A stretch of 64,000 bases of DNA from a bacterium (GTDB taxonomy: Bacteria > Auribacterota > Tritonobacteria > UBA1439): contig JAQUPF010000001.1 in assembly GCA_028716845.1 (NCBI GenBank), positions 216,167-280,166 on the forward strand. The letters run 5' to 3'. Below are positions 31,380 to 62,106 of this stretch, in pieces. The translations under genes and the position numbers were made by a program. The stretch's first letter is position 1, and each line of letters opens with the position of its first letter. The notes under the pieces were generated by a model. The model worked only from the letters and a program-made list of their open reading frames with translations, had not been told where the DNA came from and did no database searches.

Positions 31380-31489
31380 GTAGTTCGCCTGCATGGATGG
31401 ATCCTCCCGGCGCGTCTTTCCCGATTATAGCATCCGAGGGGATCGGCAGCTCGTCGTCCGCATCCCGCGGAGCCGCCGCGCACAATGCA

Positions 31490-31800
31490 CCCCGAACCGC
31501 GGATCTCCACGGATCATTGACGGATTGTCACGGATTGGATTGCAGTAGATACAGGGTTCCGGCCGCGGATTGACGCAGATACAACCGGCCACAGAGGACA
31601 CAGAGAACGCAGAGGATAGTGCCGCTTTCGGCTTTGAACGTTCAACTTTGAACTGTAGTTGTCCTCTGTGCTCTCTGTGGCTGACACATTGTTCCTTCCA
31701 CTCCACGCTCCCGCTTCCGACTCCGGACTGAAGTCGGATCCGCGATAATCCGCGTCGATCCGCGGCAAGAACATTATCCATTCGCGCTGATCTGCGCGGA
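31490..31800. repeat. Mosaic intergenic repeat element, copy a
   Basis: Contains module X (about 31563..31662, forward) and module Y (about 31496..31560, reverse) shared with other copies; lower GC than flanking genes. Confidence 0.7.
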
Positions 31801-31808
31801 AAGCAAAC

Positions 31809-31832
31809 GGGGCCTCTCTCTCGAGAGGCCCC
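31809..31832 (-). terminator. Hairpin terminator downstream of hsp20
   Basis: Perfect 10-bp stem GGGGCCTCTC / GAGAGGCCCC with 4-nt loop, followed on the minus strand by GTTTGCTTTCC. Confidence 0.55.
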
Positions 31833-31855
31833 GTGCCGGACCAGGACCGGGCGGG

Positions 31856-32308
31856 TTACTCCTTCACCTCGATCCTGATCTTCTTCTCCTTCGCCTCCTC
31901 CGCCTTCGGGAGCCGCACCTCGAGGACGCCGCCCTTGTACGAGGCCTTCACCTTGCCCTGGTCGACGGGGAAGGGGAGCTCGAGGCAGCGCTGGAACGAG
32001 CCGTAGTAGCGCTCGCAGCGGTAGAAGTCCTTCTCCTTCACCTCGGACTCCTGCTTCCTCTCCCCCCGGAGCGTGAGCGTGTTGCCCTGGATGGAGATGT
32101 CGACATCCTCCTCCTTCATCCCGGGGAGATCGGCCTTCACCACGATCGACTCCTTGTCCTCGTAGATGTCGAGGGCCGGACTCCACACGACGGCGCCCGG
32201 ATCGCCGAACAGTCGCCCGACCGAGGTGTCGAATACCCTGCTCAAGTCACCGGGGAGGTCGGCGAACGGACTCCACACATCGCGCGGTCTCCAACGTATC
32301 AGCGCCAT
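31856..32308 (-). CDS. Small heat-shock protein, Hsp20/alpha-crystallin family
   Basis: Track ORF 31856..32410; ATG 32308 with AAGGAGG RBS; alpha-crystallin domain (VKADLPGMKEEDVDISIQGNTLTLRGER...GVLEVRLPK). Confidence 0.85.
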   Translation of the reverse strand: MALIRWRPRDVWSPFADLPGDLSRVFDTSVGRLFGDPGAVVWSPALDIYEDKESIVVKADLPGMKEEDVDISIQGNTLTLRGERKQESEVKEKDFYRCERYYGSFQRCLELPFPVDQGKVKASYKGGVLEVRLPKAEEAKEKKIRIEVKE

Positions 32309-32350
32309 GATCCGCACCTCCTTTCTTCCATTTGTCCACATCATAATTAA

Positions 32351-32365
32351 GCATTTCCCGTGCCA
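32351..32365 (-). promoter_or_regulatory. Candidate sigma-54 (-24/-12) promoter for hsp20
   Basis: Minus-strand TGGCACGGGAAATGC (GG and GC separated by 10 nt, as in consensus TGGCACG-N4-TTGC); GC element about 45 nt upstream of the ATG. Confidence 0.45.
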
Positions 32366-32588
32366 GCGGGAGCGCGCGGGCGAAGGCACTCGGCGCAATC
32401 CGCAATACATTGCGGGAGAAGATAATACAAGTTAGACATCGCCATCCGGATTTCCTCACTTCTCCCCCATCCGGGCGCGTGAGCCATATTGACACGGGCC
32501 CGCATCAGACGCGCCGGGCCAGTTTGTCACGCGGGCGGCGCGGCACGGCATCCTTTCAAATGGGAGGAGATTGCGCGGCGGCGCTCCC

Positions 32589-33773
32589 ATGGGATACCAT
32601 ACCGCCATGCCCCCGAGGAATGTCACCCTCAGGCCGAAGGGCCTCCAGTGGTACATGACCGGCCACGCCTGGATCTACCGGGAGGACGTGGCGAACACGG
32701 GCGGCGCCCGCTCGGGCGACATCGTCTCCGTCTCGGACGCCCGCGGCCGCCGCCTCGGCTCGGCGTTCTACGGCGGCGCCTCGAAGATCGCCCTGCGCCT
32801 CCTGACGAGGGGCGAGGCGGTCGCGGACGACCGGCTCCTCGCGGACCGGCTCGCCGAGGCGATCGAGCGCCGGCGGCCGTCGATGGAGGAGGGCGGCGCC
32901 GCCCGGCTCGTCTACTCCGAGGGGGATTTCCTCCCGGGCCTCGTCGCGGACATCTACGACGGGTACGTCGTCCTGCAGGCGCTCATCCCCGCGGTGGACG
33001 CGCGGCTCGGCCTCTTCGCGAACGCGTGCGCCGACATCCTCCGGCCGCGCGGCATCGTCTGCAGGAACGACGCGAGCTCCCGCGCGCTGGAGGGCCTCCC
33101 GCTCGAGAAGAAGATGCTCGCGGGGGAGCAGCCGGGCCCGGTCGAGGTCGCGGAGGGCCCCGTGCGCTACCTCGCCGACCTCTGGAACGGCCACAAGACG
33201 GGGGCCTACCTCGATCAGCGCGACAACCGGCCGGCGGCGGCGCGGTACGCGCGGGGGCGCGTCCTCGACTGCTTCGCCTACCAGGGGCATTTCGCCCTCC
33301 ACTGCGCCCGGCGGGCGGAGACGGTCACGGCGGTCGAGTCGTCCGCGGAGGCGGTCGCGGTCATCGGGAGGAACTGCGCCCTCAACGAGCTCGCGAACGT
33401 GGAGGCCGTCGAGGGGAACGCCTTCGATCTCCTCCGCCGCGCGCACCGGGAGCGCCGGCGCTTCGACATGATCGTCCTCGACCCGCCGCCGCTCGCCCGG
33501 AAGCGGGCCCACGCGGCCGACGCGCTGCGCGGCTACAAGGAGATCAACCTGCGGGCGATGCACATCCTCGCCGAGGGGGGCGTCCTCGCCACCTTCTGCT
33601 GCTCGCACGGCATCCCGCGGGACCTCTTCCTGGAGGTCCTGCGCCGGGCGGCGGCGGACGCCCGCTGCGGATTCCGGGTCATGGAGGAGCTGCGGCAGGC
33701 CGCCGACCACCCGGTCCTCCTCCACGTCCCCGAGACGGCCTACCTCAAGGGCTTCGTCCTCCGGAAGACCTGA
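32589..33773 (+). CDS. Class I SAM-dependent rRNA methyltransferase, RlmI-like (PUA + MTase)
   Basis: Track ORF 32571..33773; LDCFAYQGHFALHCA and DPPPLARKRAH...EGGVLATFCCSH motifs. Confidence 0.7.
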   Translation: MGYHTAMPPRNVTLRPKGLQWYMTGHAWIYREDVANTGGARSGDIVSVSDARGRRLGSAFYGGASKIALRLLTRGEAVADDRLLADRLAEAIERRRPSMEEGGAARLVYSEGDFLPGLVADIYDGYVVLQALIPAVDARLGLFANACADILRPRGIVCRNDASSRALEGLPLEKKMLAGEQPGPVEVAEGPVRYLADLWNGHKTGAYLDQRDNRPAAARYARGRVLDCFAYQGHFALHCARRAETVTAVESSAEAVAVIGRNCALNELANVEAVEGNAFDLLRRAHRERRRFDMIVLDPPPLARKRAHAADALRGYKEINLRAMHILAEGGVLATFCCSHGIPRDLFLEVLRRAAADARCGFRVMEELRQAADHPVLLHVPETAYLKGFVLRKT

Positions 33774-42099: not shown

Positions 42100-42490
42100 A
42101 TCATCCGAATCAGCCCGGCAACAAGAACAAATCCACCACGGATTGGCGCGGATCCAACTACAGTTCAAAGTTAAAAGTTCAAAGCCGAAAGCAGCACTAT
42201 CCTCTGCGTTCTCTGTGTCCTCTGTGGCCGGTTGTATCTGCGTTAATCGGCGGCCGGAACCCTGTATCTACTGCAATCCAATCCGTGACAATCCGTCAAT
42301 GATCCGTGGAGATCCGCGGCTCGTGGTTCATCGTTCCGCTGCGTCTCGCGCGATGGACGAAGGACGAACGACGAACTGCGTGTACAGAATCCGCGCGAAT
42401 TTGCGGCAAACAAGGTCCTCCGTGTTCTCTGTGTGCTCTGCGGCGAACCAGAACCGTGAAGATCCGCGGTTGATTGTGGCTTGATATATG
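42100..42490. repeat. Mosaic intergenic repeat element, copy c
   Basis: Module X reverse (about 42155..42250), module Y forward (about 42279..42378), terminal module ending about 15 nt from the recR stop. Confidence 0.7.
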
Positions 42491-47080: not shown

Positions 47081-47400
47081 CCCGCGACCGACCGCCCTTC
47101 CCTGAAGACACGACGCGCCAAGCCACCGCCGCCTATATCAAGCACCAATCAACCACGGATTGGCACGGATCCAAACGACAGTGGAAAGTTGAAGGCATAA
47201 CGCCGAACGTAAAGTCGTTTCCGCCGCGGATGAACGTGAACAGCAGCTCGCTCTTTTCGCCACGGAGATCACAGAGAACAACTCCAGTGCGAAGTTGAAC
47301 GTTCAAAGTCGAAAGCAGCACTATCCTCTGCGTTCTCTGTGTCCTCTGTGGCCGGTTGTATCTGCGTCAATCCGCGGCAAGGCAGTTCATTTCATCGACG
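47081..47400. repeat. Mosaic intergenic repeat element, copy d (begins with 90-bp direct repeat DR1)
   Basis: DR1 47081..47170 is about 91% identical to 47918..48007; module X reverse at about 47291..47380. Confidence 0.7.
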
Positions 47401-47928: not shown

Positions 47929-48175
47929 CCGCCCTTCCCTGAAGACGCGACGCACCAATCCACCGCCGCATATATCAAGCACCAATCGACCACGGATCGG
48001 CACGGATTACGACGGATGAGCACGGATCCATACCACAGCCGGGAGCGGCGGTGTTCTTGCCGCGGATTGACGCAGATACAACCGGCCACAGAGGACACAG
48101 AGAACGCAGAGGATAGTGCTGCTTTCGACTTTGAACGTTTAACTGTAGTTGGGATCCGTGATCATCCGCGGCGGC
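47918..48175. repeat. Mosaic intergenic repeat element, copy e (begins with DR2 overlapping the stop codon of the preceding gene)
   Basis: DR2 47918..48007; module X forward at about 48059..48150. Confidence 0.7.
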
Positions 48176-49519: not shown

Positions 49520-49810
49520 TCCGCGGCCACAAAGCGCAAACTCGACAACGCACACTCGACACGCACCGATCCGCCACGGACCGGCGCGGATCCAAACGAC
49601 AGCGGAAATTTGAACGCATAAAGCCGAACGTGAGGCCGTTTCCCACGTTGAACTTTTCGCTTTGAACGTTCAACTGTGGTTGGGATCCGTGACAATCCGT
49701 CAATGATCCGCGGAGATCCGCGGCTCGTGGTTCATCGTTCCGCTGCGGCTCGCGCGATGGACGAAGGACGAACGACGAACTTCGTTGACAGAATCCGTGG
49801 CAGGGAGTTC
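49520..49810. repeat. Mosaic intergenic repeat element, copy f
   Basis: Module Y forward (about 49689..49788, about 100 bp with 2 mismatches to copy c) plus AACGTTCAA-type inverted repeats. Confidence 0.7.
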
Positions 49811-56703: not shown

Positions 56704-58212
56704 CTACCGGAGCCCGAGGTCCCGCATCATCCGCGAGAGGTACGGCTGCGTGAGCGCGAGCTTCCGCGCCGCGCGCGACTGGTTCCCGCCGCACTCGCGG
56801 AGGGCCCGGGCGACGATCTCCCGCTTGAAATCCTTCACCAGCTCCCTGTACGGCTTCGTGAGCGCGATCTCCGCCGCCGGCGCGGGGGCGAGGTCGAGGA
56901 GGAGGTTGTCCCTGTCGATCGTCTCCTTCGCGCCGAGGACGATCGCCCGCTCGAGCACGTTCTCGAGCTCCCGCACGTTCCCCGGCCAGTTGTAGCCGAG
57001 GATCGCCTTCTGCGCCGCGGGGGTGAGGGCCGGCGCCGGCCGCCCCTCCTCGAGGCAGTAGCGCTCGATGAACTTGTTCGCGATGTAGAGGATGTCCTCC
57101 TCCCGCTCCCTGAGCGGCGGGATGGTCAGGGAGATGACGTTGATCCTGAAGTAGAGATCCTCCCTGAAGGCGCCGCCCGCGACCTCCTCCTTGAGGTCCC
57201 TGTTCGTCGCGGCGATGACGCGGATGTCGGCCGTGATCGTCCCCGTCCCCCCCACCCGCTCGAACTGGCGCTCCTGGAGGACGCGGAGGAACTTCGTCTG
57301 GACGTCGGGCTCCATCTCCCCGATCTCGTCGAGGAAGAGGGTGCCGCCGTCGGCGAGCTCCACTTTCCCCTCCCTCCTGCGGACCGCCCCCGTGAAGGCG
57401 CCCTTCTCGTGGCCGAACAGCTCGCTCTCGAGGAGCTGCTCGGGCAGGGCCGCGCAGTTGATCGCGACGAACGGCCGCTTGCTCCGGTCGCTCCACGTGT
57501 GGATCGACCGGGCGACGATCTCCTTCCCCGTCCCGCTCTCGCCGAGCAGGAGGACCGTGGCGTCGCTCTCCGCCGCCCGCCGCGCCATTTCGATGACCGC
57601 CTTCATCTTCGGGGAATAGCTGGTGAGGAGGCGCGGGGCGGCGTCGAGCTGCTCCCGGAGGAGCTTGTTCTCCCTCGACATCGCGTCGTAGAGGTTCGCA
57701 TTGTCGATGGCGATCGCCACCTGGTCGGCGAACGCGCGGGCGAGGTGCAGGTCGTCGTCGGTGAAACGGCCCCCCTCCGGCTTGTTGATGATGTTGAGGA
57801 CGCCGAGCACCTTCCCGCCCGAGGCGAGCGGGAGACAGAGGATCGACTCGAGCGGCGTGTCGATGATGTGGTTGTAGCGGTCCGAGTACCGCGGATCGCT
57901 CCGGACATTGTTCGAGAGGACCGGCTCACCGTGCTTCGCCACCCATCCGGCGATCCCCTCCCCGATCTTGAACTTCACCTCCCGCATCTTGTCCTTGTTC
58001 GGTCCCACCACGATGCAGGCGACGAGTTCCTTCGTCTCCGGGTGGAGGAGCATGAGGCACGAATCCTTGCAGTCCACGACCTTCGCGGCCGAGCAGACGA
58101 TCGATTCCAGCAGCTTCTCCTTGTCCCGCGTCGAGGAGACCTCCTGCGACGCCTGGAGGAGCGAGAACAACCTGCCGATGATATACTCCCTTTTCCCCGT
58201 CTCCACTGCCAT
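56704..58212 (-). CDS. Sigma-54-dependent transcriptional activator with N-terminal GAF domain (no receiver domain)
   Basis: Track ORF 502 aa; Walker [15 protein letters not shown] motif, C-terminal HTH ([20 protein letters not shown]). Confidence 0.85.
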
Positions 58213-58514
58213 GGCTGGTCTTCGCCTTTCTCCGCGTGGACGCCGTGATGTGCGTCCTTCTTTTTACCTTTCGATCCTTAAAAAGCCGTCATGTTATCCG
58301 AATGATATCCTCAAGTCAATATGCATAATAGATATAATCATGGCATCGTTCGACTATTAACAAAACATATATCTCATTGGTTATATCATATCATCACAAA
58401 GTTATAGACACATTTTCATTTAAGAGGTATACATCGCAGGAAGTTCTATCCGCACTAAGTCACAATACACACTACAAGAGGATATTATGACATTATAATG
58501 GATATATTTCATAG

Positions 58515-58529
58515 TGGCACATAATATGC
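58515..58529 (+). promoter_or_regulatory. Candidate sigma-54 (-24/-12) promoter inside the AT-rich divergent region
   Basis: TGGCACATAATATGC, same GG-N10-GC spacing as consensus; about 55 nt upstream of ATG 58584. Confidence 0.5.
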
Positions 58530-58583
58530 TTATATAAACGAACAGGCACACAAAATGTGCATGCAGAGGAAAGGAGATTGAAA

Positions 58584-58883
58584 ATGATGGCAACAAGATT
58601 CCTCAGGACACTCGCGGCCGTCGTCGCGGCCGCCGCGGTGCTGGCTTCGACGGTCGACGCCGCCGGGAAGGTGAACATCAACACCGCCTCCCGGTGGAGG
58701 CTCGAGAAGCTGCCGGGGGTCGGTCCGGACATCGCGCAGCTGATCATCGCCTACAGGAGGGATTCAGGCGGGTTCAGGAGTGTCTCCGAGCTCGGCCAGA
58801 TACCCGGCATCGGCGGAAAGAAGCTTGAGGGTCTCAAGCGCGTCGCCACCGTCGGCCGGCTCGCGGAGCGCGACCGTCTCTGA
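58584..58883 (+). CDS. ComEA-like secreted helix-hairpin-helix DNA-binding protein
   Basis: Part of track ORF 58557..58883; ATG 58584 with AGGAGA RBS; signal peptide; INTASRWRLEKLPGVGPDIAQLIIAYRRDSGGFRSVSELGQIPGIGGKKLEGL. Confidence 0.7.
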   Translation: MMATRFLRTLAAVVAAAAVLASTVDAAGKVNINTASRWRLEKLPGVGPDIAQLIIAYRRDSGGFRSVSELGQIPGIGGKKLEGLKRVATVGRLAERDRL

Positions 58884-58902
58884 CGGGCGCTGGAGCGGAA
58901 CG

Positions 58903-58936
58903 GGCGGTTCGCCGACGGCGAGCCGCCATTTTTTTT
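58903..58936 (+). terminator. Rho-independent terminator after the ComEA-like gene
   Basis: GGCGGTTCGCC-GACG-GCGAGCCGCC hairpin followed by A and eight T residues. Confidence 0.75.
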
Positions 58937-59115
58937 GCGCGGGCCGGTCCGCGAAAAGCGGCCACCTGTCCACGGCGCCGATGATGTTGCCGTCGACCTT
59001 CAGGACGGCCGGCCCCGACCGCCCTTTCGCGTTGGGCGCGTCGATGATCGGCCGCGAGGGAAAGCCGCGGCGTTCATCGGCGCCCGGCGACGTGTTTCAT
59101 GTTATATTGATTCTC

Positions 59116-62106
59116 GTGAACGTGCGCGCGTGGCATCCCAGCTTGAAGACGATCGTCGCCGCGGCCGCCTCCCTCGCCGCGCTGCAGCCCCTGCCGGGCG
59201 CCGCCGGTCCCGACGAGGGGCCGGACGCCGGTTCCGAGCTCGCGCTCCATTCCCGGGTCATCCGGCCGGGTCCGGCCGACCTCGAGGGGCTCCGCGCCGC
59301 CGCCGCGCGCGCGCACGGGAGATCGCGGATCCACGCCCTCATCCGACTCGACGGGATCCCTTCGCCGGCACGCCGGGCGGCGCTCAGCCGGGAAGGGCTC
59401 TTCCTCCTCTCCTACGTGCCCGACCGCGCCTGGCTCGCCTCGCTCCCCTCGGACGACATCGGCCGTATCGTCGCCCTGCCCGGCGTTCGATGGGCGGGGC
59501 CGCTCGATCCGGCCGACAAGATCAGCCCGATCCTCCGGCGGGGCGGGTTCGGCGGATGGGCGCACGACGGGTCGTCGGGCCGCTGCGTCGTCCTCGTCAC
59601 GCTGTTCCGGGACGTCGGCCTCGAGGAGGGGGAGGAGGCCGTCCGCTCGCTCGGGGGGAGGGTCACGGGGGAGGCGGGTCTCGTCCACACGCTCGTTGCG
59701 GAGATCCCCGTCGCGGCGGTCGAGGCCCTCGCCGCCCATGACATCGTCGAGTGGATCGAGCAGCCGCTCCCGCCGCTCGAGCCGGTCAACGCCGGGAACA
59801 GGGCGGTCGTCGGCGCGGACACGCTCCAGGCCGCGCCGTACAACCTCGCGGGGAGCGGCGTGAACGTCCTCGTCTACGACGCCGGACGGGTGTACGGCCA
59901 CAGCGACCTGGTCGCTCGGATGACGGAGGGCGACTCCTCGCCGTTCCATGAGCACGCCACGCACGTCGCCTGCACGGTCTGCGGCGACGGCACGGTGACG
60001 TTTAACAACCGCGGGATGGCGCCGGCCGCCAATCTCCTCTCGATGGGGTTCGAGTACGACGGGAGCGGCGTCTTCCTCTACACGAACCCGGGCGACATCG
60101 AGGACGATTTCACCTACGCGAAGAACGCCTGGCCCCCCTCCGCCGACCTCCTCAACGCCTCCATCGGGACGAACACGGCCTGGAACGGTTTCCCGTGCTC
60201 CTACGAGGGGAACTACGGCGTCACCGACATCCTCCTCGACTCGATCGTGCGCGGATCGCTCGGGGAGCCGTTCATCATGGCGTGGGCCGCGGGGAACGAG
60301 CGGGGAGACGGCAGGTGCGGCTCATCGTACCGCACAACCGCGCCGCCGGCGTGCGCGAAGAACCCGATCCAGTCCGGGGCGACGAACGAATCCGACGGGA
60401 TGTCCTCCTTCTCGTCATGGGGGCCGACGGACGACGGGCGGATCAAGCCGGTCGTCTGCGCGCCGGGCGTGAACGTCCTCTCGTGCAATCAATCCAACGG
60501 CTACAGGACAATGAGCGGGACATCGATGGCCTCGCCGACGACCGCCGGCGTCATCGCCCTCATGCTCGAGCAGTACCGGATCACGTACGGGACCGCCGTC
60601 GCCTTCCTCCCCTCGTCGGCGAAGGCGCTCCTCATCCACACGGCGGCGGACCTCGGCCCGGCGGGGCCCGATTTCCGCTTCGGCTACGGCCGGATCGACG
60701 CCGTGGCGGCGGCGGACCGGATCATCGCGCGCGACCTCCGCGAGGAGCCGGCCACCGTCCACGACGAGACCCGTGACTACGCGGTGACGGTCGCGCCCGG
60801 GACGCCCGAACTCAGGGCGAGCCTCGCCTGGGACGACCCGCCGGGGACGCTCATGGCGGTGCGGAAGCTCGTCAACGACCTCGACCTCGAGCTGGTTGCC
60901 CCGGGCGGCGCCGTCCACCGCCCCTGGGTCCTCGATCCCGCGAATCCGTCGGACACCGCGACGACGGGCGCGGACAATCTCAACAACCAGGAGCAGGTCG
61001 TCGTGAGCGGCCCCGCCGCCGGCGTCTGGACGGTCCGCGTCCGCGCCTCAGCCCTCCCGGAGCCGCCGCAGGCGTACTCGATCGTCTTCCCCGGGGCGGC
61101 CGACATCGCTCCCGCCGTGACGCCCGGGGCCACGCCCACGCCGACGCCGACGCCGAAGGTGTGCTACGAGGCCGTGACGAACGGCGGCTTCGAGTCGGGC
61201 TCGGATCCCTGGGTCCTGACCGGCTCGGCGGTCCGGAGCGCCCAGCAGGCGCGGTCGGGCTCGTACTCGATGCGGCTCGGGGGCCCGGGCAACGGCAGGA
61301 TGCATCTCGAGGTCGGCGTCCCGCCGTCGGCCGCAGGCGCCACGCTCTCCTACTGGGTCCGGATGCAGACGGCGGAGACCGACCCCGATCCGGACGACTT
61401 CCTGGATGTGGAGATCCACGACGGCGCCGGGAGGACGCTCACGACGCTCCAGTCGCTCTCCGACCGCGATCCGTCCTACAAGGACGCGTGGCGGCAGGAG
61501 TCGTTCACCCTCGGGTCGGACCTCGCGGGAAGAACGATCCGGCTGCATTTCCAGGCGCTGGTGAACAACACCATGGCCACCTATTTCTTCATCGATGACG
61601 TGGGCCTCGAGATCTGCGGATCCGAGCTGCCGCCGACGCCCGCGCCGACGCCGACGCCCGCGCCCAACTACATCAACCTGTCGCTCTCCCCGGTACAGCT
61701 CCGGCCGGGCGGGGCGGTGGAACTCTCCTGGCGCTGCGACTTCAGCCGCTGGGACTACGCGGGCCGGCCGGTGGACGTGTACCTCGCGGCGATCAGGGAC
61801 CCGAAGGCGGCGGGGGCCTCGTCGAGCATCGGGGACGCGCTCGCGGGCGGCGAGGTCCGGCTCTTCGAGGACGGGATGCGGACGTCGTACCGTTTCACCG
61901 GCGCGGTGCGGGCGCCGTGCTGGCGGGGCGTGGTATTCCCGCCGACACCGCTCGCGGGGACGCTCCGGTTCACGGTGCCGCCCGACCCGTCGTTCCACGG
62001 CGACTGGGTGTTCGCGACGGCGTTCTTCCTGAAGGATCCGCCGGGGCCGGTCCGCGACGACGGCCTCCCCGTGGAGAACTCCGACATCGCGACGGTCGCC
62101 CCGTAG
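59116..62106 (+). CDS. Secreted subtilisin-like serine protease (peptidase S8) with propeptide and large C-terminal extension
   Basis: Part of track ORF 58780..62106; start uncertain (candidates between 59044 and 59143); catalytic triad contexts VLVYDAG, HATHVACT, SGTSMASP; Thr/Pro linkers; C-terminal beta-rich domains. Confidence 0.8.
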   Translation: MNVRAWHPSLKTIVAAAASLAALQPLPGAAGPDEGPDAGSELALHSRVIRPGPADLEGLRAAAARAHGRSRIHALIRLDGIPSPARRAALSREGLFLLSYVPDRAWLASLPSDDIGRIVALPGVRWAGPLDPADKISPILRRGGFGGWAHDGSSGRCVVLVTLFRDVGLEEGEEAVRSLGGRVTGEAGLVHTLVAEIPVAAVEALAAHDIVEWIEQPLPPLEPVNAGNRAVVGADTLQAAPYNLAGSGVNVLVYDAGRVYGHSDLVARMTEGDSSPFHEHATHVACTVCGDGTVTFNNRGMAPAANLLSMGFEYDGSGVFLYTNPGDIEDDFTYAKNAWPPSADLLNASIGTNTAWNGFPCSYEGNYGVTDILLDSIVRGSLGEPFIMAWAAGNERGDGRCGSSYRTTAPPACAKNPIQSGATNESDGMSSFSSWGPTDDGRIKPVVCAPGVNVLSCNQSNGYRTMSGTSMASPTTAGVIALMLEQYRITYGTAVAFLPSSAKALLIHTAADLGPAGPDFRFGYGRIDAVAAADRIIARDLREEPATVHDETRDYAVTVAPGTPELRASLAWDDPPGTLMAVRKLVNDLDLELVAPGGAVHRPWVLDPANPSDTATTGADNLNNQEQVVVSGPAAGVWTVRVRASALPEPPQAYSIVFPGAADIAPAVTPGATPTPTPTPKVCYEAVTNGGFESGSDPWVLTGSAVRSAQQARSGSYSMRLGGPGNGRMHLEVGVPPSAAGATLSYWVRMQTAETDPDPDDFLDVEIHDGAGRTLTTLQSLSDRDPSYKDAWRQESFTLGSDLAGRTIRLHFQALVNNTMATYFFIDDVGLEICGSELPPTPAPTPTPAPNYINLSLSPVQLRPGGAVELSWRCDFSRWDYAGRPVDVYLAAIRDPKAAGASSSIGDALAGGEVRLFEDGMRTSYRFTGAVRAPCWRGVVFPPTPLAGTLRFTVPPDPSFHGDWVFATAFFLKDPPGPVRDDGLPVENSDIATVAP

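Follow-up and report, generated by a model that had tools for sequence, protein, structure and literature searches.

A conserved sigma-54-type promoter and an upstream dyad pair precede a small heat-shock gene and suggest an unlinked activator

The stretch of DNA analysed here (the window, 64 kb in length) carries a single small heat-shock gene, hsp20, and no other chaperone genes, and the question it raises is how the expression of this gene is controlled. A sigma-54 promoter stays silent until an ATP-driven activator acts on it, and placing a holdase chaperone under sigma-54 would therefore imply tight off/on control by a dedicated sensor. The heat response is poorly known outside the Proteobacteria and Firmicutes, and bacteria of the PVC group are a clear gap. 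An earlier note on this DNA proposed that hsp20 has a sigma-54 promoter and suggested a GAF-type enhancer-binding protein (EBP) of the same window as its partner. Our analysis upholds the promoter and speaks against the partner. We consider it likely, from comparisons of orthologous loci, that hsp20 is a single-gene sigma-54 unit controlled by a dyad-bound EBP that is encoded elsewhere and is distinct from the GAF-type protein of the window.

The gene itself and the elements immediately around it are as follows.
31859-32308 (31856-32308 including the stop codon), minus strand: hsp20 coding sequence, 150 aa, an alpha-crystallin-family small heat-shock protein.
32308-32306, minus strand: hsp20 start codon ATG, read from the sequence.
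32314-32323, minus strand: strong Shine-Dalgarno sequence AAAGGAGGTG, 5 nt before the hsp20 ATG.
32339, minus strand: predicted transcription start, placed by canonical sigma-54 geometry 12 nt past the C of the GC element.
31807-31834, minus strand: intrinsic-terminator-like hairpin with a 12-bp stem (9 G-C pairs) and a 4-nt loop, followed by TTGCTTT.

The predicted product matches the full Pfam HSP20 profile (PF00011; E = 8.6e-25, residues 47-148), has a C-terminal I-R-I motif of the IXI type that can be read directly in the translation, and is identical to a deposited protein entitled 'MAG: Hsp20/alpha crystallin family protein [bacterium]'. A longer open reading frame (31856-32410, 184 aa) was rejected as the hsp20 gene, since every orthologue begins MALIRW and the start must accordingly be the ATG at 32308 and not the codon at 32410. 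In the orthologues the ATG is likewise preceded by a GAAAGGAGG element. The hairpin begins 22 nt past the stop codon, and its resemblance to a terminator suggests that hsp20 is monocistronic. The earlier observations that AAGGAGG and an ATG follow the promoter, and that a perfect hairpin terminator follows the gene, were both correct; the former are AAAGGAGGTG at 32323-32314 and the ATG at 32308-32306, and the latter is the 12-bp stem at 31834-31807. Counted from the predicted start at 32339, the leader would be approximately 31 nt long. It folds no better than shuffled sequence (z = -0.85), the Shine-Dalgarno sequence is predicted to be unpaired, and an Rfam scan of the whole 64-kb window returned zero families at gathering score. 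Control by an RNA thermometer of the ROSE or fourU type, or by a riboswitch, was ruled out on the basis of this unremarkable leader fold and the lack of Rfam matches.

Upstream of the leader lies the element on which the question of sigma-54 control turns.
32349-32365, minus strand: sigma-54 promoter core TGGCACGGGAAATGCTT, with GG at 32364-32363 (-25/-24) and GC at 32352-32351 (-13/-12).

The core TGGCACGGGAAATGCTT is 57 nt 5' of the hsp20 ATG, on the same strand, and its GG-N10-GC spacing is canonical; the -24 GG / -12 GC arrangement reported earlier is present as described, coordinates included. The element, TGGCACG-GGAA-ATGCT, departs from the consensus YTGGCACG-N4-TTGCW only at the first T of TTGC, and this single mismatch in the -12 region (ATGCTT vs TTGCW) was counted against the sigma-54 model. 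With up to one mismatch allowed, TGGCAC-N5-TTGCW occurs twice in the window against an expectation of 0.51. In order to avoid circularity, the position weight matrix (PWM) was taken from 18 experimentally established E. coli promoters (PMC2831329, Table 1), which themselves score between 14.0 and 24.7 bits. With the base composition of the window as background, the hsp20 site scores 16.6 bits with this matrix and so falls inside the range of the training set, near its low end. The promoter scan that the earlier note had put forward as a check thus ranks the site second among approximately 128,000 positions on both strands. Windows simulated with a Markov model reached 16.6 bits anywhere in their length in 4 of 100 cases. 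When a uniform background was used the same two sites headed the list, 58515-58532 with 16.3 bits and the hsp20 site with 14.4 bits, the next best scoring 10.7. The distance of 57 nt to the start codon can be compared with 18-313 nt in the E. coli promoter set. No protein with an RpoN box was found in the six-frame translation of the 64-kb window, which was also counted against the sigma-54 model; it is very likely that the organism uses sigma-54, because the window encodes an EBP bearing the GAFTGA motif, and a second high-scoring sigma-54 promoter in the window points indirectly in the same direction.

These scores taken by themselves might be reconciled with a functionless chance match, as the consensus with one mismatch is expected 0.5 times per window and 4% of the simulated windows reach the PWM score. 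However, the site has the correct strand and the correct distance to the start of the gene, and it is the comparison with other lineages that decides the matter. The closest Hsp20 homologues (P0002-P0012, 64-79% identical) come from wastewater, digester and sediment metagenomes; the representative-genome collection contained no close relative, its best match being 54% identical. Synteny is kept on the orthologous contigs, with a divergent rlmI-like rRNA methyltransferase gene followed by hsp20, greA, corA and rlmN. All ten orthologous contigs have exactly one TGG-N9-TGC within 330 nt upstream of hsp20, in most cases at -57 to -61 from the ATG and in one case, with a hairpin insertion in the leader, at -99. 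The gene call of P0002 has a spurious N-terminal extension that swallowed the promoter. In an alignment of nine distinct lineages on the element, TGG.A......TGCT alone is invariant from -25 to +45, and the flanking DNA has diverged. As judged by this alignment, the -24/-12 element is a clear phylogenetic footprint. That the element is invariant in nine lineages while its flanks are not conserved, that it occurs together with the conserved pair of dyads described below, and that the same arrangement is found in distant phyla, argue strongly against coincidence; a chance match now appears extremely improbable and may be regarded as effectively refuted by the comparative data. Apart from this -24/-12 element, the intergenic region is conserved only in its ribosome-binding site and in the dyads. 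A palindrome, CCGCAAT-GT-ATTGCGG (32399-32414), was weighed as a possible regulatory site, but no orthologue has it, and it lies outside the conserved module.

The second conserved component was seen when the orthologues were anchored on the -24/-12 element, as a 15-bp dyad of the form GNGNCA-N3-TGNCNC that is present in two copies upstream of hsp20.
32481-32495, plus strand GAGCCATATTGACAC, gene strand GTGTCAATATGGCTC: proximal dyad, centred at about -149 from the predicted start; candidate half of an enhancer (upstream activator sequence, UAS).
32516-32530, plus strand GGGCCAGTTTGTCAC, gene strand GTGACAAACTGGCCC: distal dyad, centred at about -184 from the predicted start.

Examples from orthologues are GGGTCATTGTGACCC in locus L005 and GGGTCATCATGACGC in locus L107. 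A dyad PWM was trained on sites from other contigs only, with the window excluded, and its top two positions in the 64 kb were 32481-32495 (18.1 bits) and 32516-32530 (17.2 bits). The next-best match scores 11.3 bits and is situated within a gene, and further members of a dyad regulon in the window were ruled out on this account. In eight of the nine lineages the dyads are found at -130 to -138 and at -165 to -181 from the -24 TGG, the exception being L106 with -110 and -151. The spacing between the two dyads is 35 nt in the window vs 41-44 nt in its relatives, a discrepancy that was counted against the model. An IHF consensus, WATCAANNNNTTR, allowing up to one mismatch, was not found in any lineage in the interval from the dyads to the promoter, which was counted against the model as well; AT content there rises only mildly, to 0.53-0.56 at -40 to -65. 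The positions of the dyads have the classic geometry of an upstream activator sequence for a sigma-54 EBP, and from this an enhancer role is suggested. With the dyads added to the independent PWM and to the invariant -24/-12 element, the earlier proposal that hsp20 is under a sigma-54 promoter is strongly supported.

The dyads could instead be operators for a repressor or activator, or serve to control the rlmI-like gene, with the sigma-54 activator binding elsewhere or not binding DNA at all. They lie approximately 77-125 nt before the start (32607) of the divergent rRNA methyltransferase gene and thereby also in its promoter region, which was counted against the model. Some EBPs do function without binding DNA, among them CtcC of Chlamydia and FlgR of H. 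pylori, and the dyad is as yet linked to no EBP. Yet the distance from the dyads to the -24 element is fixed, whereas that to the divergent methyltransferase gene varies from approximately 60 to 270 nt across orthologues, and for this reason we consider the dyads to be tied to the hsp20 promoter. In more distant lineages, moreover, the neighbouring gene is a different one and the dyads stay with hsp20; all 40 loci that have them also have a GG-N10-GC promoter; and two sites approximately four helical turns apart, 90-190 bp upstream, form a classic enhancer geometry. We therefore think it unlikely that the dyads are operators of this other kind, and retain the enhancer as the preferred reading.

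A resemblance to NtrC-type enhancers may offer a lead. Upstream of glnAp2 these consist of tandem dyads, TGCACCA-N3-TGGTGCA. By analogy with that system, the hsp20 locus has two dyads with CA-N3-TG at the junction of their half-sites, a few helical turns apart and 100-190 bp upstream of a sigma-54 promoter. The hsp20 half-site differs, however, being GNGNCA, commonly G(G/T)G(T/C)CA, and not GCACCA, and the target is a chaperone gene and not a nitrogen gene.

Analysis of more distant hsp20 homologues (37-54% identity) proved informative as to how widely this arrangement extends. With 10 bits as the minimum score, the E. coli matrix finds a coding-strand site in 19 of 67 non-identical upstream regions, in comparison with none on the opposite strand and 1.4% of shuffled sequences, and most of these matches are 57-90 nt from the ATG. 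An impression from the strict pattern TGG-N9-TGC, that distant hsp20 genes are without the promoter, was an artefact of that pattern, as the PWM and a relaxed pattern both found many. A variant with an AGCT-type -12 element, [TC]GGCA[CT]-N6-[AC]GCT, is present in many distant loci, and with the relaxed pattern a sigma-54-like promoter is found no more than 130 nt from the start in 56 of 88 loci. The dyad is closely confined to hsp20: with 13 bits as the minimum score there are 64 matches in the 30.3 kb made up by the first 330 nt upstream of each hsp20 gene, as against zero in the 425.7 kb that form the rest of the fetched sequence. The relaxed sigma-54 pattern is matched at 38 of 40 dyad-bearing loci; the other two, L004 and L106, have TGGAAC promoters that the pattern excludes, so that a GG-N10-GC promoter is present at all 40. 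Among loci with a taxonomic label the promoter was found in five of five from Verrucomicrobiota or Chthoniobacterales and in none of nine scored from other phyla, these being Acidobacteriota, Omnitrophota, Chloroflexota, Tectomicrobia, Saccharibacteria, Actinomycetota, Gammaproteobacteria and an archaeon. The gene upstream of hsp20 changes in distant lineages and the dyads remain with hsp20. The module of promoter and dyads precedes the same subfamily of small heat-shock proteins in a lineage near the Auribacterota, in Verrucomicrobiota and in numerous metagenomic lineages that bear no label. Since it precedes this subfamily in Verrucomicrobiota and metagenomic lineages, we regard the module, on comparative grounds, as an inherited stress-gene circuit and not a local accident. 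It may even be, although we offer this only tentatively, that the dyad and sigma-54 promoter represent an ancient circuit shared by several phyla, in which a single unlinked EBP would govern small heat-shock genes and perhaps a wider set of chaperones.

Even if the sigma-54 site is real, it could be an auxiliary promoter or a roadblock, with hsp20 transcribed chiefly from another promoter, be it of the ECF, the sigma-70 or a lineage-specific heat-shock type. Scanning 31400-32700 with the consensus gave no sigma-70-like site, and no sigma-32-like site (TTGAAA-N13-17-CCCCAT, one mismatch per hexamer) was found in the 300 nt upstream in nine lineages; in both cases the consensus used may not be that of the host, and promoter types peculiar to this lineage could be missed by such scans. 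An ECF-type sigma gene is located in the window at 1200-1760. There is also precedent for mixed control, as E. coli ibpB combines sigma-32 and sigma-54 (cited in PMC2831329) and tandem promoters have been described at heat-shock operons of Chlamydia (PMC8762339). Against this possibility stand the lack of sigma-70-like sites in 31400-32700 and of sigma-32-like sites in the nine lineages, and the fact that intergenic conservation does not go beyond the sigma-54 core, the dyads and the ribosome-binding site. A merely auxiliary role for the sigma-54 promoter therefore seems improbable, and we continue to view it as the principal promoter of hsp20.

It remains to consider which activator the promoter would answer to. 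The candidate named in the earlier note and its neighbourhood are as follows.
56707-58212, on the strand divergent to the HHH_3 gene: GAF-type EBP (GAF-AAA+-HTH), Pfam Sigma54_activat 3e-73, with GAFTGA and Walker A motifs.
58515-58532, pointing to the ComEA-like gene: best sigma-54 promoter of the window, 22.0 bits, in the AT-rich intergenic region beside the EBP.
58584-58883, divergent to the EBP: ComEA-like HHH_3 gene, 99 aa.

The GAF-type protein had been called the only EBP in the window, and this proved accurate, no other protein there having both GAFTGA and Walker A. Some circumstances favour the idea that it activates the hsp20 promoter, perhaps alongside the gene next to it. Besides being the sole EBP in 64 kb, it has orthologues (67-79% identity) that share lineages, and even samples, with the hsp20 clade, L005 and L114 for instance both being from sample 3300038831; GAF domains are able to sense small molecules or the state of a protein; and the two sigma-54 promoters of the window share an unusual ATGCTTA -12 region. 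However, the EBP gene is 25 kb from hsp20, and its constant divergence to an HHH_3/ComEA-like gene with its own high-scoring sigma-54 promoter, seen in four lineages (the window and three more), is what one usually sees with a dedicated local regulator. None of the four EBP/HHH_3 intergenic regions has the hsp20 dyad, whose PWM gives no more than 5.8 bits there vs 9-19 bits at hsp20. What these regions share instead is TTATATC, at -124 to -146 from the -24 element, and also TATTGAC, which is most simply read as the -35 box of the EBP gene; in a visual reading TTATATC was not seen in the sequence upstream of hsp20. A GTCAATA shared with the EBP intergenic region is better explained there as the TTGAC -35 box of the sigma-70 promoter of the EBP gene itself (TTGACT-N17-TAACAT). 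The orthologue group of the EBP is tight, with 67-79% identity and then an abrupt drop to 47%, whereas the dyad module extends to Verrucomicrobiota. For this protein to be the hsp20 activator seems quite unlikely, then, given a dedicated divergent target, the absence of the dyad there and a separation of 25 kb, and in the simplest reading of the locus it serves as a local regulator devoted to the ComEA-like gene. The pairing of regulator and target from their co-occurrence in one window was tempting and probably wrong, and is corrected here.

A scan for GAFTGA and Walker A in approximately 110 hsp20 loci found the 3-4 kb around hsp20 to be free of EBP genes, an unusual situation for the target of an EBP; a GSFSGA match at L035/L036 was rejected as not belonging to an EBP. 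Because the gene is missing from the vicinity in all of these loci, the hsp20 activator would appear to be unlinked everywhere, and in this organism it is probably a different EBP encoded outside the window.

The events at the locus might thus be pictured as follows. Sigma-54 holoenzyme would bind the -24/-12 element (32364-32351) in a closed complex, and an ATP-hydrolysing EBP, bound as an oligomer to the two dyads approximately 149 and 184 bp upstream, would loop over and open it. Transcription would then proceed from about 32339 into a short leader that lacks structure and carries a strong ribosome-binding site, and would end at the hairpin 31834-31807. The signal to the EBP is most likely heat or proteotoxic stress, since the hsp20 product is a holdase chaperone. 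We infer the dependence on sigma-54, the start at 32339, the binding of an EBP to the dyads and the heat or proteotoxic signal from the features described above. The EBP may sense this signal by titration of a chaperone, as in the PspA/PspF system, or by phosphorylation, as is reported for HsfA/HsfB in Myxococcus.

It has been established that a small heat-shock gene can be under sigma-54 control. The sigma-54 promoter of E. coli ibpB, credited to Kuczynska-Wisnik et al. 2001 as cited in PMC2831329, was bound by sigma-54 in ChIP, where it was a positive control, and the ibpB transcript responds to deletion and overexpression of rpoN (PMC2831329). In ibpB, as in the window, a GG-N10-GC sigma-54 promoter stands before a gene of the Hsp20/IbpB family. 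The E. coli site, however, is weak (TGGTAA...TTGCTG), belongs to a different phylum and lies 168-185 nt upstream, inside the ibpAB operon, whereas the window site is 57 nt upstream of a monocistronic gene; and ibpB coexists with sigma-32 control, whereas hsp20 has no detectable sigma-32-like promoter and has a conserved tandem dyad. A non-proteobacterial case is CT0644 (HSP20) of Chlorobaculum tepidum, in the Chlorobiota, which has a mapped primary transcription start site with an RpoN motif (bioRxiv 10.1101/172254). The likeness consists in a sigma-54 motif before an HSP20-family gene, with the start mapped there and inferred in the window, and in the available portion of that report neither a UAS nor an EBP is described for the gene.

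Within the PVC group the precedents are broader and less specific. A genome-wide PSSM survey of 2025 predicts sigma-54 regulons in which COG0071/IbpA, GroEL/ES, GrpE, DnaJ and DnaK are over-represented, both in Bacteroidota and in Planctomycetota, the latter a PVC phylum as the lineage of the window probably is (PMC12316311). In Chlamydia, another PVC member, sigma-54 is used at a heat-shock operon (PMC8762339). As far as the available parts of these two sources extend, they make statistical or single-operon statements, without describing an enhancer motif or a cognate EBP, and they do not single out the hsp20 genes of Auribacterota-like lineages or Verrucomicrobiota. In view of the ibpB, CT0644 and Planctomycetota precedents, the window is a further case of a kind of control that is already known, in a candidate phylum that the portions of the literature available to us had not singled out. 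Beyond the precedents cited here, the literature that was covered, which is partial, yielded no described heat-shock EBP or hsp20 dyad.

A single promoter of this type would not surprise a sigma-54 specialist, and the conserved dyad, with the common unlinked activator that it implies, is a more novel lead than the promoter. What has been gained is a clean promoter, a putative and precisely placed pair of activator sites, and a matrix that matches only hsp20 upstream regions in the approximately 0.5 Mb scanned. The comparative data provide a testable handle on heat-shock control in the PVC group, and an activator responsive to proteotoxic stress in these phyla can now be sought directly by way of the dyad. 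If the proposal is true, an unlinked EBP would hold the place that sigma-32, HrcA or HspR has in better-studied bacteria, and the window would be one instance of an uncharacterised class of heat-shock regulator, for which the dyad could serve as bait. One orthologue of the window EBP carries the label Candidatus Aureabacteria, a name since replaced by Candidatus Auribacterota, within the PVC group; the organism of the window is therefore probably a PVC bacterium, a placement that fits the connection of the hsp20 module with Verrucomicrobiota.

At 56704-58883 the window holds a module, followed by a subtilase gene, in which the gene for the GAF-type enhancer-binding protein (EBP) is divergent to the highest-scoring sigma-54 promoter of the whole stretch (TGGCACATAATATGCTTA, 22 bits).

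56707-58212, minus strand: GAF-type EBP gene
58515-58532, plus strand: predicted sigma-54 promoter TGGCACATAATATGCTTA
58584-58883, plus strand: HHH_3 gene, 99-aa secreted ComEA-like helix-hairpin-helix protein
58780-62106: subtilase (Peptidase_S8) gene, after the HHH_3 gene

This promoter is predicted to drive the HHH_3 gene. The divergent EBP and HHH_3 pair, together with the sigma-54 promoter, is kept in three other lineages (loci L111, L112 and L114), among them a Candidatus Aureabacteria MAG. The genome has 69.6% G+C, against which the region between the two genes (58213-58580) stands out as strikingly AT-rich. Two short motifs are common to these intergenic regions in all four lineages. 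The first, TTATATC, is found at -124 to -146 from the -24 element and may be where the GAF-type EBP binds. The second, TATTGAC, probably represents the -35 box in the sigma-70 promoter of the EBP gene itself; in the window that promoter reads TTGACT-N17-TAACAT.

In many distant hsp20 genes (loci L013-L017 and L028-L104) the sigma-54 promoter has a -12 region of a variant type, [TC]GGCA[CT]-N6-[AC]GCT, in which AGCT stands instead of TGCW, and in some AT-rich lineages (L065, L072, L089 and L097) TGGCAT-N5-TTGAAA is found with GTGAAATATTTTCAC-type dyads. Such variant sites score too low under E. coli-derived matrices.

In the window, the stretch that separates the dyads from the hsp20 promoter contains the following, 35-50 nt upstream of the -24 element.

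32399-32414: perfect palindrome CCGCAAT-GT-ATTGCGG

Only the window's lineage has this palindrome; it is absent from all nine orthologous hsp20 upstream regions. In one other lineage, an insertion of about 40 nt in the orthologous hsp20 leader (L005, 3902-4000) shifts the promoter to -99. The inserted sequence makes up a long perfect hairpin (GGAGTCTGTCAGAGTA...TACTCTGACAGGCTCC) and may be either a repeat that was inserted or an RNA element specific to that lineage.

A small intergenic repeat occurs five times in the window, in both orientations.

31497-31681: repeat copy, an insertion in the gap from the hsp20 terminator to greA
42155-42319: repeat copy
47259-47378: repeat copy
48059-48144: repeat copy
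49685-49723: repeat copy

The repeat family, about 120-185 nt in length and 93-97% identical, has internal inverted repeats and looks like a MITE/REP-like element. In orthologous loci the gap from the hsp20 terminator to greA is only about 130-240 nt.

The window has two further loci.

1200-1760: ECF-type sigma factor gene
6782-27561, minus strand: gene block of about 20 kb with glycosyltransferase (GT2, GT1), PMT_2-family, sugar-nucleotide (DegT aminotransferase, epimerase/dehydratase, nucleotidyl transferase) and methyltransferase genes

The block looks like a large locus for cell-envelope glycans.
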